Shown: piece by piece, positions 1 to 5,169 of the stretch
How positions within the stretch are numbered: the stretch's first letter is position 1
Layout of the letters: every line of letters starts with the position of its first letter
IMG/VR virus record: IMGVR_UViG_3300029518_000077
Strand: one strand, 5' to 3'
From: a virus
Taxonomy: Duplodnaviria; Heunggongvirae; Uroviricota; Caudoviricetes
DNA length: 5,169 nucleotides
The notes under the pieces: generated by a model
The model's database searches: none
Seen by the model: only the letters and a program-made list of their open reading frames with translations
Told to the model about the DNA's origin: nothing
Program-made: the position numbers and the translations under genes

Positions 1-450
1 AACAAATTAATTTTTATAAATAACGATAATGCAGATGTGTTTTTAATGGCTCCATGCTTTGCTCTTGGCGCATTGTATGCTATAAACAAGGACAAAATAT
101 ACATTTCACCACATGCACCAATAGGATTTGCAATATTATATAATTTTGTGTCAGACCCAACACTCAAGCATATGCTTTTTTACTTTTGCGCATGTACATT
201 TTTCGTGTATTTATCAACAACAAAAATAATAAAATCAGTAAGAATAAAACATGATGTGTCATATGGCGTTTACTTGTGGGGCTTTTTAATACAGCAGATA
301 ACATTCAGGTTATTACCTGATATAAACCTGTACTTAAATCAAGTTTTATGCATAGCACTATCACTTATTGCTGGACTGATATCATTTATTGCGATAGAAA
401 AACCAGCAATGGATATTGGGAAAAAGATATCAAACAAATTCAGATATTAG
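1..450 (+). CDS. Acyltransferase family 3 membrane protein, C-terminal portion (likely phage-borne O-antigen acetyltransferase, Oac/OafA-like); 5' end outside the window
   Basis: ORF 37..450 is open in the same frame back to base 1 (NKLIFINNDNADVFLMAPCF...), so the gene probably starts upstream of the window. The product is strongly hydrophobic with multiple predicted transmembrane segments and has acyltransferase-3-like C-terminal motifs (SYGVYLWGF..., ...IEKPAMDIGKK). GC is about 25-30% against about 50% for the neighbouring genes. Stop TAG at 448-450 is followed directly by an intrinsic terminator. The position, convergent with the tailspike, matches where O-antigen modification genes sit in P22-like phages such as Sf6. 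Family assignment is by recalled motifs only. Confidence 0.62.
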   Translation, partial: NKLIFINNDNADVFLMAPCFALGALYAINKDKIYISPHAPIGFAILYNFVSDPTLKHMLFYFCACTFFVYLSTTKIIKSVRIKHDVSYGVYLWGFLIQQITFRLLPDINLYLNQVLCIALSLIAGLISFIAIEKPAMDIGKKISNKFRY

Positions 451-453
451 ATA

Positions 454-480
454 AAAAGGGGCTGAAAGCCCCTTTTTTTT
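454..480. terminator. Bidirectional rho-independent terminator shared by the convergent acyltransferase and tailspike genes
   Basis: Perfect inverted repeat AAAAGGGGC (454-462) / GCCCCTTTT (468-476) with loop TGAAA, followed by a T-run to 480 on the plus strand and flanked by an A-run (453-457) that gives a U-tract for minus-strand transcripts. It lies between the two convergent stop codons. Confidence 0.8.
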
Positions 481-2305
481 ACGTGGTAGTTGCGGATACC
501 TTCCATTCACCAGTTGATACGTATGTCCACTTCCACGGTCCGGTAGAAACCTGACCAAGCAATTCCCACTTGGTGCCAAACGGGAAATTAGTTGTATCTC
601 CCGTGGGTGGTGATACTNNNNNNNNNNNNNNNNNNNNNNNNNNNNNNNNNNNNNNNNNNNNNNNNNNNNNNNNNNNNNNNNNNNNNNNNNNNNNNNNNNN
701 NNNNNNNNNNNNNGTTGATCCTGCTCTGCCCACTACCCCATCTAATAGAATCAGTGGTGTTGTCGGGAATTACCGTACCATTAAAATTTGCAGTTGCATC
801 ATTAAGATATATGTATTTGCTAGATGAGCCTCCAGAGTAACTAGAAAAATGAGATGAAACCAATGAGATGAAACACGATTCCAGAGATACAGCTTCAACT
901 CCTCCATCATGATGATTAACCCCTCTAAATGCAGTTACGTTAATTCGACTACCATTTATATCAAATATTTTACCAGTGCTTTCTTCGCTTCCGCATCCAG
1001 ATAGATTCACTCCAGTACAATCTTTAAATTTATAGCCAGTACCATTAACGAAGTCAGCAGCCAAACAAGTCAGGCTGCTATATGTAATGTTATTAAAATC
1101 ATATGCAACACCTGAACATGTTTTCACATAAATATTGTTTAAATTATATGTGGTTCCACCTGCTTCGATTTTAACTCCAGTAACGACATCCTGAATAGTA
1201 ATGTTTTCCCATGTCTGCAACCAACTATCACTAGTGCGATAACCGGTTTTCACCCTATGAATATACAGGTCCTGAAGGCGCACATTGTAACTGATAGCGC
1301 TATATATCCCGTAATCACAAGGATTGGGCGCAGTATTTAGAATACTCAATCCAATTATTCTGGTGCTTCTTGTTTGTGTCCCGCTTAAATCACCTGATGT
1401 GTCACTATCCATATCTACCGCAACAATAAAGTCTNNNNNNNNNNNNNNNNNNNNNNNNNNNNNNNNNNNNNNNNNNNNNNNNNNNNTTTAATATCGTTAC
1501 CTGTTTTAATTAATCCACAGGAATCCATACCGCACCCCTCCAGCGTGACACGTGGAGGCACGATAGCGCCATACTTAATATCGTAAAATCCATTGAGTCT
1601 GAGCGTACCTCCTTCATATGGAAGGCATGCAGTCAGGCGTTCAAAGGCTTCACTGTTTTGCTCAGCCGTACATGATGTCATCATGCCACCGTTCTCTACC
1701 GGAATATCGATGTGGCTACCTGCTCTCTTCCATCGCTTACCGCCGGGGGTAACAAAAATATTCACACCATCGTCAGCTTCAGAACTGGAAAAGGCTATAA
1801 ACGTTCCTCCCCCAAGCCCGGGTGTGTCAGAGTAGTATCCACGAACAGTTATATTTTGCCCGACGAATGATGGCTCAATTGTTCTGAGCGTAGAAACGTC
1901 AGGGCATATTCCGATATATTTCTCTCCATCATCTTTCGCAATTTCTTCTTTTAACCTGATAATTCCCTGGTCAGGGTCGTACTTCAACACATTAGGAAAA
2001 TAGAACTGCTGCGCACCATACGCATCGTATACAGCCATAGAATGGCCTTGCACAGTTACGAACTTGGCAATCTGTCCGTTATATACCGGGTAACCAGCAG
2101 CGTTAATGATGATTGGCTGTGCAACAGGAACATGAGAACCATCTTCGTTCTCCACATAAACCTGAATCTGGTTTTCAGGATTTACCGGGTCAGTGTCAAT
2201 TTTACCGATATAAATTTTGCCATTGGCTACAGCTTTAAAAGAACGAGCCATAGTGAAGAGTTGAGAAGGCATGCTTACCACAACATTTGCGGTGATATCT
2301 GACAT
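479..2305 (-). CDS. Tailspike protein: P22 gp9-like N-terminal head-binding domain fused to a divergent receptor-binding domain; interrupted by two N-runs, 3' end uncertain (479 or 588)
   Basis: Minus-strand ORF 1415..2353 contains [59 protein letters not shown]...[31 protein letters not shown], a near-colinear match to the P22 tailspike head-binding domain as I recall it ([59 protein letters not shown]...[31 protein letters not shown]). The start is placed at ATG 2303-2305 (M of MSDITANV), with GGAG (complement of 2314-2317) 8 nt upstream. After YDPDQ the sequence is a different G/N/T/S-rich, beta-helix-like region. The ORF continues past the 1435-1486 gap in another frame (ORF 588..1412, open upstream to the gap: [11 protein letters not shown]...) and a third open segment in the original frame ends at TAA 479-481, abutting the terminator. 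Overall span of about 608 codons fits known P22-like tailspikes of roughly 620-710 aa. Confidence 0.82.
618..713. other. Run of 96 N (masked or unresolved sequence) inside the tailspike receptor-binding region
   Basis: Directly visible as n characters; the bases are not available for analysis. Confidence 0.97.
1435..1486. other. Run of 52 N (masked or unresolved sequence) inside the tailspike; reading frame differs on either side
   Basis: Directly visible. 52 is not a multiple of 3, and the open frames flanking the gap differ (codon phase 2 upstream, phase 0 downstream on the minus strand). Confidence 0.97.
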
Positions 2306-2426
2306 TTCATTGCTCCAGACGAATGATATGATGCAACCATGATGTGATTGCATACAGAAATGGTACTATTGAGTATTTATCCAGTAGGTTACGATGCCAT
2401 TCCACCCAACTGGTGAGGCATCAAGG
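2306..2426. promoter_or_regulatory. Divergent intergenic control region between tailspike and mnt starts; expected to hold the promoters and a repressor operator
   Basis: 121-bp non-coding gap between two divergent start codons. Contains inverted repeat ATGCAA (2331-2336) N11 TTGCAT (2348-2353), several ATGAT repeats (2323-2327, 2328-2332, 2339-2343) and an imperfect 22-bp dyad at 2366-2387. A possible minus-strand -10 TATCAT (complement of 2324-2329) lies upstream of the tailspike RBS. The -35/-10 assignment is not confident. Confidence 0.4.
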
Positions 2427-2687
2427 ATGTACAGCAAATACGACGAGGCGCAGTTTCACTTGAGACTTCCGCATGAACTCCACGCGAAAATTAAACAGCG
2501 TGCGAAGATGAATAACAGGTCTCTGAACTCAGAGATAATTGCAGCGATTGAAGAATCATTGGCTAAACAAAGCTCTGCATCCGTTTACATTGACGATGCA
2601 GAGCGTATGGCAGAACAACAATCTGATATGGTTAAGAAAATTGTCTTTGATACGCTCAAAGAGCTATATAAAAAAGACAGCAGCTAA
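2427..2687 (+). CDS. mnt: Mnt-like repressor, ribbon-helix-helix (Arc/Mnt/MetJ family)
   Basis: The 86-aa product MYSKYDEAQFHLRLPHELHAKIKQRAKMNNRSLNSEIIAAIEESLAKQSSASVYIDDAERMAEQQSDMVKKIVFDTLKELYKKDSS aligns along its length with P22 Mnt as I recall it (...HFNFRMPMEVREKLKFRAEANGRSMNSELLQIVQDALSK...NDAERLADEQSELVKKMVFDTLKDLYKKTT). Start is placed at ATG 2427 rather than the ORF-track ATG 2394 because GAGG (2415-2418) sits 8 nt upstream and the length then matches Mnt (83 aa). Stop TAA at 2685-2687. Confidence 0.85.
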   Translation: MYSKYDEAQFHLRLPHELHAKIKQRAKMNNRSLNSEIIAAIEESLAKQSSASVYIDDAERMAEQQSDMVKKIVFDTLKELYKKDSS

Positions 2688-2742
2688 CTANNNNNNNNNN
2701 NNNNNNNNNNNTGGTTTTTGCACGTTCCTGGTGTTTGCGAAG

Positions 2743-4740
2743 CTATTCTGACAACGCATCAGACTTGGCACCTTGAGTCAGGGCGTTAATGGCCTTTTGC
2801 GCCTGCTGCATGGCTTTCTCAAACGCTGTTGATCCGCGTGGGGTGTTTGCCATTCTGAGCATTGCATTTCTGAATGGTTCGCTCTCATAGGCGCGAGTAA
2901 GAAGTCCGTAGCTTACCGCTGCGCCAGTTGTCGCCGGGTTCATTGCCGTCCCATACCCGATAATGAACGGGATGGTTTGCTGCCCTGTTGGTGTTGTTAC
3001 TGCCGCTTTTGCAGCCTGCTGCGTGGATTGCAGGTAGTTTTTTAATCCCTTCAGATAAGCAGCGTCCTGCCCCTTAAATGTGATGCCAGTCTGGTTTTGC
3101 AGGATGTTAAGCTGCCGAAGGAACTGGTCAGGGGATCCGCCAGATTTCTCCATCGCCTTTCCAATGATGCCATTGCGCATTTGCGCCCTGCCAACACGAC
3201 CAACTGAGTTATACAGCGTCTTAATTTCAGATTTGTTCTTGCTGAATAGCATGTTGTTGACAACTTCCGGCGTCAGGTCGCCTTTCATGAGAACATTCTT
3301 CAGCCTGGTATTCTTTAGTTTCGCCGCTTCGTCAGCGTAGACGGCATTGGCCTGCTGATATTTACGGAGAGTATCGTTGCCAAGATTCTGACCAATGGCA
3401 CCATTGATATCGTCTGTCATCGCCTTGTAAACGCGCTGAATGGCGGCATCGGAACGGTTTGGTAACACTGGTCGCTCACCCTTCACGTCCATTCTGAACT
3501 GGCTGCGCAGGTCGCTTAATTGCTTCAAATCCAGATTTACCGGACCATCAGGGCCAGCATTGCGAACAAGCTCATCACGATATGACTGAAGTTTTGAAAT
3601 TGTCTCGTTATCAGCTACCTTACCAAGCTTCTGCAGATTAGATATCTCAGTATCAATCTGCTGAATTGCTCGCGCAGGCTGAATGTTTACTCCAGCCATA
3701 GCATTCTGAACCTGCTCCAGTCGATTACCGGCGGCACGACGAATTCCTGATGTTTTCGCTTTAAGGCTGTCAATAACAACCGCTGGATCATACTCACCAA
3801 ATTTATCAGCAAATCTCTGCACCAACTGGCTTCTCGCTTCCTGTTGCGTTGCTCTCATTCCGCTTGTGCCAGCCAGAGGGATATTTTCTGCTGTAGTCTG
3901 CGCCATTTTTCCGACGCGGGAAGTTGGTTGTAACAGGTCTGTGGTGTGCAGAGGAATTCCTTCACGCTCTGCAAATCTGATGGCCTGCTGCGCTTCTGGC
4001 GCGATAGCACCACGAACGCCACGATAAGCAGCACCTAATCCACGTCCAGCAGCGTTAATAGCACCGCCAGCAAGTACACCAACGCCTAAATCGGTGGCGA
4101 GTGCTTCCGCATCATCTTTCGCACTATTTGCAGCAAGTGACCCGACTGCGTTTTCTGCTAGAAGGCGAGTTGCACCATGAACAATTCGACCAGCAAGTGT
4201 TGGTGCCTGTGTTGCAGCTCTCTCAACTCCAGCAGGAGTGAGGTAAGGCAATGCTTCAGCAAATACCCTTCCCTCTGTCGTTTGTGGAGTCAGCACGCCT
4301 TGCTGAAGGCCAAAGTCCTGTTCTAATCCCTGCGTTGTTACTCGTGGCGCTGGGTGATATGTCCCATCGCCAATTCCGAGTTTACCGCCAGCCCAAGCCG
4401 CCGCGCTTGTTACAGCATCGGCAACTGATGCAGGTATGTTTGCCACGTTCACGCCAGCCTGCACCAGTCCGCGACCAGTTTCTTTCACGGCTTCACCAAG
4501 ATCAGACACAAATCCACTTTGCTGTGGTTGTTGCTGTGCTTCTGGTTGTTGTGTCTCCACTGGCTGCACAGATGGCAATGGATAGGCAGCATAGAAAGCT
4601 TGCTTAGCCTGCTCTGCATTTTCTCCGGCTTGCGGGGCCACGACTTCATTGAAGTATTGCTCCTGAGCCTGCGCTTTTTGTTCTGGTGCTAACGCCTGAT
4701 ACTGTGGAGAGGCGATAACATCTTTCCATGCTTTAGCCAT
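2743..4740 (-). CDS. Ejection / DNA-transfer protein, probably P22 gp16-like (665 aa)
   Basis: Long minus-strand ORF at about 52% GC. The product is low-complexity and A/Q/G-rich (...QAQEQYFNEVVAPQAGENAEQAKQAF..., PEAQQQPQQSGF...) with no obvious enzymatic motif, typical of podovirus ejection proteins. It is the last late gene before the mnt/tailspike module, which is the position of gene 16 in P22. Its start ATG (4738-4740) overlaps the upstream gene's stop, and a G-rich Shine-Dalgarno (GGGGTGA) precedes it. Assignment rests on synteny and composition, not on a remembered alignment. Confidence 0.6.
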   Translation of the reverse strand: MAKAWKDVIASPQYQALAPEQKAQAQEQYFNEVVAPQAGENAEQAKQAFYAAYPLPSVQPVETQQPEAQQQPQQSGFVSDLGEAVKETGRGLVQAGVNVANIPASVADAVTSAAAWAGGKLGIGDGTYHPAPRVTTQGLEQDFGLQQGVLTPQTTEGRVFAEALPYLTPAGVERAATQAPTLAGRIVHGATRLLAENAVGSLAANSAKDDAEALATDLGVGVLAGGAINAAGRGLGAAYRGVRGAIAPEAQQAIRFAEREGIPLHTTDLLQPTSRVGKMAQTTAENIPLAGTSGMRATQQEARSQLVQRFADKFGEYDPAVVIDSLKAKTSGIRRAAGNRLEQVQNAMAGVNIQPARAIQQIDTEISNLQKLGKVADNETISKLQSYRDELVRNAGPDGPVNLDLKQLSDLRSQFRMDVKGERPVLPNRSDAAIQRVYKAMTDDINGAIGQNLGNDTLRKYQQANAVYADEAAKLKNTRLKNVLMKGDLTPEVVNNMLFSKNKSEIKTLYNSVGRVGRAQMRNGIIGKAMEKSGGSPDQFLRQLNILQNQTGITFKGQDAAYLKGLKNYLQSTQQAAKAAVTTPTGQQTIPFIIGYGTAMNPATTGAAVSYGLLTRAYESEPFRNAMLRMANTPRGSTAFEKAMQQAQKAINALTQGAKSDALSE

Positions 4741-5169
4741 TAATCACCCCATAGTGAAGAAAAGTTACTGCTGGCTGCTGGCTGTGATACCTGCTCAGAT
4801 TGCGGCAATGTCTGCGACGAAGAAGAAGTTCCTCTGTCAACTGCTGAAATAACCCGCAAAGCATCATAAGCTCGACCAGAAGCAGCTTTCAGCGAATTGA
4901 ACTGGTTTTCCATCTTCCGGCGCTTGGTATCAATGGTTTTTGTGGAGTCGCCAGGCTGAGGGAAATACATTTGATAATATTTTGACATTTCAGCAGGTGC
5001 GATAGCTGCCCCTGTTTCCTGACGGAGTATTGCCATTATTGCGTCATTAGCATTAACAACGTATTGCTGCTCTGTTGGGCTGAGCGTTAAGTTAGCCAGC
5101 GTCCCATTACCCAAAGCATTATTAATGATCGCCACTCGCTGTGGGCTAAGCTGGTCTTTCAGTGTATCT
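4740..5169 (-). CDS. Ejection protein, probably P22 gp20-like; C-terminal portion, 5' end outside the window
   Basis: The minus-strand frame is open from the window edge (5169) to stop TAA at 4740-4742. The ORF track begins it at a GTG (5133-5135), but the frame continues upstream without a stop (...DTLKDQLSPQRVAIINN...). It is translationally coupled to the downstream gene. Identity is inferred from gene order only. Confidence 0.45.
   Translation of the reverse strand, partial: DTLKDQLSPQRVAIINNALGNGTLANLTLSPTEQQYVVNANDAIMAILRQETGAAIAPAEMSKYYQMYFPQPGDSTKTIDTKRRKMENQFNSLKAASGRAYDALRVISAVDRGTSSSSQTLPQSEQVSQPAASSNFSSLWGD

Follow-up and report, generated by a model that had tools for sequence, protein, structure and literature searches.

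An Sf6/P22-like tailspike of Escherichia coli with an exchanged beta-helix receptor module, probably directed at the O107/O117 O-antigen

Domain-swapped tailspikes are textbook features of P22-like phages. The P22 tailspike gp9 (2xc1, 1lkt) is an endorhamnosidase built as an adaptor, a hinge, a beta-helix and a C-terminal domain, and Sf6 carries the tailspike gp14 (7sg7/7ukj), which also has an endorhamnosidase module. Sf6 integrates at argW, and the gene between its tailspike and integrase genes is an O-antigen acetylase. Here, we examined the tailspike gene on a 5,169-nucleotide stretch of DNA from a tailed virus (Caudoviricetes; IMG/VR record IMGVR_UViG_3300029518_000077), which is referred to at its full length as the window. 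The encoded protein shares the plan of P22 gp9, and the gene lies in an order like that of Sf6 (ejection proteins, mnt-type repressor, tailspike, acyltransferase, integrase) at an argW site. Among phages of E. coli and Salmonella, P22-like, phiV10-like and Kuttervirus spikes typically have the O-antigen as their specific target (PMC10408124, PMC8432352), and receptor-binding-protein subtypes have been shown to be exchanged among Lederberg-, Uetake- and Kutterviruses, with anchors that follow phage taxonomy and receptor domains that follow host serogroup (Pas et al. 2023, PMC10408124). A further reference point is the tailspike TSP2 of phage CBA120 (orf211; 5w6p/6w4q), a glycosidase shown by experiment to be specific for O157, with its acid/base site between the trimer subunits (PMC7506556). 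Overall, we read the gene in the window as encoding an Sf6/P22-like tailspike with an exchanged beta-helix receptor module that is probably an O107/O117 endoglycosidase, and we put the probability of this explanation at roughly 0.8.

The initial annotation had placed the tailspike at positions 479-1500, a range that covers only the C-terminal half of the gene. As seen in the translations of the open reading frames (ORFs), the coding sequence lies on the minus strand, with its ATG start at 2305 and its TAA stop at 479-481. It can be divided as follows, where pLDDT is the predicted local distance difference test score:

479..2305, minus strand: complete tailspike coding sequence, 605 codons plus TAA, broken only by the N masks at 618-713 and 1435-1486
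1967..2305, minus strand: head-binding domain (the virion adaptor), residues 1-113, with YDPDQ at its end; defined by PF09008, the Sf6/P22 alignments and a DNA breakpoint
1706..1966, minus strand: linker and small 'head/neck' module, residues 114-200; matches to the N-terminal modules of TSP2, WceF and a K2 depolymerase
1392..1705, minus strand: proximal beta-helix, residues 201-303 (mask 1435-1486 inside); 70-100% conserved family-wide, pLDDT 86-96
482..1391, minus strand: distal variable half, residues 304-605 (mask 618-713 inside); remaining helix rungs and C-terminal beta-sandwich

The three unmasked pieces of the gene each translate cleanly, but in three different frames of the ORF listing. 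When these pieces were compared by blastn with E. coli VE-T9, the nearest complete genome, they were 99.8% identical, colinear and free of gaps, and the two masks, which hold 96 and 52 N in the window, corresponded to 92 and 47 nucleotides; a third mask, at 2691-2711, stands for 55 bases in VE-T9. The N masks are not length-preserving, and frames and coordinates across them are unreliable. Since the mask lengths differ from the true gap lengths, the three apparent frames are one uninterrupted ORF of 605 amino acids, and an intact single tailspike ORF of this length is present in VE-T9 and in four other assemblies that hold the same prophage (Logan). In addition, 555 of the 558 unmasked residues were identical (3 differences) to a 605-amino-acid database protein (P0001; a cluster of 53 member sequences). 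The protein is already in NCBI under an automatic name, 'phage head-binding domain-containing protein [Escherichia coli]'. The coding pieces beyond the masks, which might have come from a different gene, belong to this one gene.

In the Pfam scan, the N-terminus matched PF09008 (Head_binding) over the full profile, 1-113, with 226.7 bits (cutoff 24; E 5.8e-68), which bears out the initial proposal that the first roughly 115 residues form a P22 gp9-like head-binding domain. A sequence search of solved structures gave Sf6 gp14 (7sg7) as the best match to the adaptor (E 2.7e-65; about 91% identity by a count over the alignment), and P22 gp9 matched with E about 1e-51 and about 76% identity. By these alignments, the adaptor is of the Sf6 subtype rather than P22 proper. 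Both alignments stop at YDPDQ. At the DNA level, positions 1967-2400 of the window were present with at least 95% identity in about 1,100 of 5,426 complete E. coli genomes, the set used for all genome counts below, and the similarity to those genomes breaks at 1966/1967, that is, at codon 113/114. The adaptor was poorly modelled, with low pLDDT, in an AlphaFold2 monomer. Beyond YDPDQ, the solved-structure search gave no significant sequence match to the receptor modules of P22, Sf6 or HK620 and no P22/Sf6 endorhamnosidase homology: the phmmer alignments to 2xc1, 8tvr and 7sg7 end at about residues 120-148, and a second Sf6 stretch scores -0.5 bits. The divergence from P22 after YDPDQ that was remarked upon initially is therefore confirmed, and the receptor-binding part is not a close homologue of P22 gp9.

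The fold of the receptor module was evaluated with an AlphaFold2 model built from 34 homologues. The model reached a pLDDT of about 80-98 across residues 131-605, for the most part above 85, and in it a small neck module is followed by a long right-handed parallel beta-helix and then by a C-terminal beta-sandwich, in agreement with the beta-helix character that had been suggested for the region after the adaptor. When the model was compared with the Protein Data Bank (PDB) by Foldseek, the best matches were AS12 gp42 (6eu4, E 1.2e-16), Belisarius gp86 (24qi), CBA120 TSP2 (6w4q/5w6p) and a Klebsiella K2 spike, whereas P22 and Sf6 were found via the adaptor only (template modelling score about 0.2-0.4). 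The comparison of the region after residue 115 with known tailspikes, which had been proposed as a check, thus points to AS12, Belisarius and TSP2 and to none of the P22, Sf6 and HK620 modules. Residues 115-198 matched the N-terminal module of TSP2 (5w6p/6w4q, E 1e-7), WceF (6tgf) and the Klebsiella K2 depolymerases (7vyv/7lzj), and residues 200-463 matched 6eu4 in sequence, weakly but significantly. The receptor module is therefore placed among the tailspike depolymerases of the TSP2/AS12 structural class, where it forms a distinct family and is no variant of the P22 endorhamnosidase. It differs from TSP2 (14-16% identity) in its anchor domains and serogroup, and from AS12 gp42 and Belisarius gp86 (16-19% identity), which are podovirus capsule depolymerases of phages of another genus, Acinetobacter, in its anchor. 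PF27114 (Phage_tail_beta) is a precomputed annotation of P0001, given for the whole protein and not mapped to a segment, and of nearly all homologues; the local Pfam scan of the tailspike gave PF09008 alone, possibly with a local copy that lacks the recent PF27114 model. In the family alignment, acidic residues are conserved at D261, D271, D277, D290, D296, D298, D344, D358, D416 and E439, with D290, D296, D298 and D344 invariant and D358 and E439 at least 94% conserved. Candidate catalytic groups may be sought among D344, D358, D416, E439 and the other conserved acids.

To place the module among other phages, its relatives were collected from 5.8 billion clustered proteins, which gave 64. Full-length identity to the query was 38-81% (33 homologues), the lowest distal blocks falling to about 24-30%. 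At least four kinds of N-terminus occur among the full-length relatives, and identity to the query differs from block to block:

Anchor kind 1: P22/Sf6 adaptor (PF09008)
Anchor kind 2: about 220 residues, 89.6% identical to the phiV10 anchor, Uetakevirus type
Anchor kind 3: PF18668 TSP1/gp66 anchor, on the TSP1 gene of the four-spike row in Kuttervirus STML-13-1
Anchor kind 4: a fourth N-terminus, no type given
Residues 1 to about 125: identity tracks virion type
Residues about 126-300: 70-100% identity in all relatives
Distal half: identity falls to 28-56% past variant-specific breakpoints

Homologues of residues ~126-605 are found on phiV10/epsilon15-type spikes (P0027, P0016 and L014 of VE-T9) and on the TSP1 of the Salmonella Kutterviruses STML-13-1, BRM 13313 and vB_SenAc-pSC20, where the PF18668-anchored copy is the fourth in the tailspike gene row of STML-13-1. 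These homologues are 56-73% identical over residues ~126-605, and 70-100% in the proximal part; they differ from the window protein in their anchors and in their 'consensus' distal halves, which are 28-52% identical to that of the window. No receptor was assigned to STML-13-1 TSP1 in Sorensen et al. 2021 (PMC8432352). The exchange seen here is of the kind described by Pas et al. 2023, and at 38-81% full-length identity the family lies above the subtype threshold of at least 30% used there; O107/O117 is outside their 14 assigned serogroups and is not mentioned in their supplementary files (PMC10408124). The sequence comparisons show that the receptor module is horizontally exchanged among virion types. 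The initial proposal of a P22-type adaptor joined to an unrelated receptor module is thus supported by the domain search, the solved-structure sequences, the structure prediction and the fold searches, as well as by the presence of the module on other anchor types.

The receptor module itself is a nested mosaic, in which the adaptor is followed by a conserved proximal part and a highly variable distal half. The proximal DNA is 99% identical to that of otherwise different tailspikes in strains PSS-08-1, GZ2408P and APEC-O117H42, and the distal breakpoints lie at about residue 303 (P0013 type), about 398 (P0003/P0008 types) and about 375-450 (P0005/P0007). Residues 399-605 (window 482-1106) are the near-unique part of the distal half. 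DNA of the window-type distal half was found in 1 of the 5,426 genomes, and an exhaustive HMMER search with residues 399-529 against 1.84 billion representatives gave 22 proteins, none of them above 53% identity besides fragments of the window-type variant itself. The drop in guanine-cytosine (GC) content that the initial annotation had placed after the N-terminal part is real, but its start is well inside the receptor module, away from the adaptor junction: the adaptor has a GC of 0.437, positions 1487-1966 have 0.458, positions 714-1434 have 0.384 (0.32-0.34 around 1019-1198) and the last 139 nucleotides have 0.489. We also considered a conserved C-terminal anchor for recombination, and rejected it: the last 46 residues have the higher GC (0.489) but are no better conserved than the rest of the distal half.

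The initial annotation had held that neither the host genus nor the glycan specificity could be read from this DNA; the host is E. coli, whereas for the glycan O107/O117 is likely by association only. DNA of the conserved proximal module was found in 4 of the 5,426 genomes (VE-T9, PSS-08-1, GZ2408P and APEC-O117H42), as 6 copies in two prophage types; in two of the genomes, one further copy has a phiV10-type anchor. In VE-T9 and PSS-08-1, the wzx/wzy genes of the O-antigen cluster are annotated as O107/O117 family. The O107/O117 wzy was present in 20 genomes, and all four module carriers were among these 20 (hypergeometric 1.3e-10, if the genomes are independent). O117:H42 stands in the name of one carrier and is also the serotype of the isolate that gave another database relative. 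All 6 copies, on two anchor types, come from genomes with O107/O117 wzx/wzy, the four genomes being probably one lineage. By analogy and from this host association, the receptor family probably recognises the O107/O117 O-antigen backbone. In the literature, no described O117 or O107 tailspike was found, nor any experiment on its binding to or cleavage of the O-antigen; the one paper on an O117 phage concerned a Dhakavirus with tail fibres. The second prophage copies (L012 10001-12100 in APEC-O117H42 and L014 3001-5103 in VE-T9) have the phiV10/epsilon15-type anchor, and these spikes, in O107/O117 genomes, adjoin an Acyl_transf_3 gene, after which come genes for a holin and an endolysin.

The only difference between the two serogroups is N-acetylglucosamine versus glucose within a five-sugar unit, and all five sugars are neutral or N-acetylated (PMC7685785). 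Three substitutions in WclY are reported to separate O107 from O117. We considered whether VE-T9 is O107, since its WclY allele is three residues off that of an O117-named strain, but among about 15 billion proteins this allele occurs just once; it is a private change or an assembly error and not the O107 reference allele, and O107 and O117 are not separable here. Relative to the common O107/O117 allele, the VE-T9 changes are R194L, P285S and T339A, all non-synonymous and the only differences in 3.6 kb, and in the VE-T9 O-antigen region (L003 30344-31405 and 36326-37303) wzzB has an internal stop. The WclY changes and the wzzB stop could be private mutations, the outcome of phage-driven selection on the O-antigen, or assembly errors.

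Taken together, a mechanism can be proposed by homology and structural analogy. As in P22 and Sf6, the adaptor would dock the trimeric spike on the tail hub. The trimer would then bind the host surface polysaccharide and cut it as an endoglycosidase, as CBA120 TSP2 and AS12 gp42 do, and cleavage would let the virion descend to the outer membrane. Given the host association, the most likely substrate is the O107/O117 O-antigen. Hydrolysis is likelier than lyase chemistry because the O107/O117 polymer presumably contains no uronic acid. By analogy with Sf6 Oac, the neighbouring acyltransferase would probably acetylate the O-antigen of the lysogen and block the adsorption of related phages.

Several points weigh against this explanation. 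The nearest solved structures are 14-19% identical and are mostly capsule depolymerases. A profile search of PDB sequences for the catalytic residues of TSP2 (D506, E568 and D571) and AS12 gave alignments that span only the neck and the early helix and are too weak for the transfer of single residues. PHROG 8280, the best PHROG match of the tailspike, is labelled colanic-acid degradation. The module is absent from 16 of the 20 O107/O117 genomes, and the four genomes that hold it, in which many of the protein accessions near the O-antigen locus are identical, are probably one lineage, so that the association is with the lineage. A role of the acyltransferase as a serotype converter that O-acetylates the O-antigen is putative, its basis being family and position. 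Finally, the window differs from VE-T9 in having no HNH insertion and another N-terminal part of gp16. Some of these points would fit a receptor module that targets a capsule or exopolysaccharide of the E. coli lineage (K antigen, O-antigen capsule or colanic acid) and not the lipopolysaccharide O-antigen: the top structural neighbours are capsule depolymerases of Acinetobacter and Klebsiella phages, the neck resembles WceF, a stewartan-modifying enzyme, and both the colanic-acid label and a lineage effect can be read in this way. We consider such a target unlikely, as the PHROG 8280 match (profile positions 1-331 of 632) covers mostly the head-binding and neck parts, and in every prophage examined the neighbour of the spike is an acyltransferase or gtrABC, genes of the O-antigen-modifying kind. 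A colanic acid cluster is present in most E. coli and lies beside the O-antigen locus in both genomes inspected, whereas the module is in 4 of the 5,426 only. The O-antigen specificity typical of P22-like, phiV10-like and Kuttervirus spikes of E. coli and Salmonella also speaks for the O-antigen (PMC10408124, PMC8432352).

It is less probable still that the module is a glycan binder with no cleaving activity, or that its chemistry is a different one, for instance deacetylation or lyase cleavage. The catalytic residues are candidates, which leaves room for this, and the beta-helix fold is also found in epimerases, lyases and adhesins (2pyg, 9ozd, PfbA), but no SGNH or esterase domain was found in the Pfam scan, the invariant and highly conserved acids described above lie on the helix, and the closest functional relative, TSP2, is a hydrolase; in addition, the neutral or N-acetylated O107/O117 sugars, presumably without uronic acid, would leave no substrate for beta-elimination. 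That the segments after the gaps are separate genes or a decayed pseudogene is extremely improbable: the three frames across the masks and the unreadable masked bases of the window copy would allow it, yet the mask lengths disagree with the true gap lengths in a 99.8%-identical genome, five assemblies including VE-T9 hold the intact ORF, and the unmasked pieces align without gaps and agree with P0001 at nearly every residue. The reading as an Sf6/P22-like tailspike with a probable O107/O117 endoglycosidase module is therefore preferred.

The genes around the tailspike were examined in the window and in related prophages. By gene content and position, the phage appears to be temperate and Sf6/P22-like (Lederbergvirus-type), with its integration site at argW of E. 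coli. The gene order in VE-T9/L005 is P22-type virion genes, gp7, gp20, gp16, mnt, tailspike, acyltransferase and IntS, followed by the chromosomal genes yfdC and mlaA, and the argW tRNA-Arg gene lies alongside in VE-T9. The virion set of L005 comprises the scaffold, P22 coat, gp4, gp10, gp26, gp7, gp20, gp16, mnt and tailspike genes, so that the tailspike closes the late operon, preceded by gp7/gp20/gp16 and a remnant of immI. The other features of the window are the following:

1..450, plus strand: last 149 codons and stop of a 347-amino-acid membrane acyltransferase, convergent with the tailspike; putative O-antigen O-acetylase
453..477, no strand assigned: hairpin, predicted bidirectional intrinsic terminator between the convergent acyltransferase and tailspike genes; perfect, GC-rich GGGGC-loop-GCCCC stem with A/T runs
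2427..2687, plus strand: mnt-like gene for an Arc/Mnt repressor, transcribed divergently to the tailspike gene; matches PF03869 Arc (E 7.7e-15) as well as PF11423 Repressor_Mnt (E 3.4e-14); immI remnant
2743..4740, minus strand: gp16-type DNA ejection/transfer protein, 665 amino acids; PHROG 770 (E 1.6e-239), and PF26808 Phage_P22_gp16 on the L005 gene of identical length
4740..5169, minus strand: 3' end of a gp20-type ejection protein gene; PHROG 917, and PF16928 Inj_translocase on the L005 homologue

The acyltransferase part in the window is 100% identical to residues 211-347 of the VE-T9/L005 acyltransferase. The full-length gene matched PF01757 (Acyl_transf_3), and PHROG 3333 (O-acetyltransferase) matched with E 5.6e-37. 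Sf6 Oac is a distant relative only, appearing among the weak tblastn matches below 60% identity. The closest phage-borne relatives by tblastn were acetyltransferases of Burkholderia and Halomonas phages (27-30% identity). The GC content of the gene is 0.309, very low, as in O-antigen gene clusters. The hairpin has a folding free energy of -15.7 kcal/mol on both strands (z -3.1 and -4.8); the scan for consensus promoters and terminators, whose counts were not above those of shuffled sequences, missed it, and an Rfam scan of the whole window gave no family at threshold.

Other distal variants of the spike adjoin other modification genes, as follows:

P0007-type spike: neighbour is a 350-amino-acid acyltransferase, 48% identical to that of the window
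P0003- and P0005-type spikes: neighbours are 324- and 326-amino-acid acyltransferases, respectively, on the other strand, about 20% identical to that of the window
P0013-type spike: neighbour is gtrABC

The integrase past the modification gene is 99% identical in three of the variants compared (L005, L008 and L009), and a variable low-GC island runs from the breakpoint within the spike to the end of the modification gene. It is conceivable, though on balance doubtful, that the distal half and the modification gene are swapped as a linked low-GC cassette between the conserved proximal spike and the integrase, with the distal variants, that of the window included, tuning the spike to acetylated or glucosylated forms of one O-antigen backbone and not to other serogroups. 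A scheme in which the distal variant tracks the glycan allele of the host was rejected as tested: the phiV10-type spike of VE-T9 has the consensus distal type, like those of O117 strains, and not the type of the window.

The remaining differences among the related prophages concern genes upstream of the tailspike. Between gp16 and the tailspike (window 2394-2687) there is only the mnt-type repressor, annotated as an Arc family protein in VE-T9, without arc/ant or sieA, and the same is seen in L005 and L009; the related prophage L008 has sieA, arc and ant in that interval. Positions 2712-4449 of the window are 98% identical to VE-T9, and 4450-5169, which hold the 5' part of the gp16-type gene and the gp20-type 3' end, were unaligned in a default megablast blastn. 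The gp16-type protein of VE-T9 has 797 amino acids and an annotated lytic transglycosylase domain, compared to 665 amino acids in the window. By these comparisons, the ejection-protein genes are mosaic as well. In VE-T9, mnt and the start of the tailspike are separated by a 459-nucleotide HNH endonuclease ORF (L001 6361-6819), which neither the window nor L005 has; its place in the window is the gap between 2248 and 2291. Over its first 19 codons, the VE-T9 tailspike (MPEQLYNVVVSQ...) diverges from that of the window. The HNH ORF may be a homing-endonuclease insertion with a co-converted flank. In PSS-08-1 (L002 1999-5533), the P0013-type tailspike and gtr genes lie in a prophage remnant. There, a truncated LysR gene and an IS4-family ISVsa5 transposase directly adjoin the start of the tailspike, whose annotated coding sequence begins at the internal Met of the adaptor.

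Overall, the gene encodes a real domain-swapped tailspike that is ordinary in kind and changes no concept. What is new here is the corrected gene model, the host species, the structural class, and the nested mosaic with its linked modification gene. With it, the catalogue of serogroup-linked tailspikes gains a receptor-module family and a rare distal variant of that family, along with a testable O107/O117 prediction. Serogroup O117 includes Shiga-toxin-producing strains. It also includes avian-pathogenic strains (PMC13000508), and APEC-O117H42 is an O117 avian-pathogenic carrier among the matching genomes. Modules of this kind are starting material for diagnosing serogroups, engineering host ranges and preparing depolymerase reagents, and the breakpoints within the helix, together with the paired modification genes, offer a system in which to ask whether recombination within the catalytic helix of the tailspike tracks O-antigen decoration.

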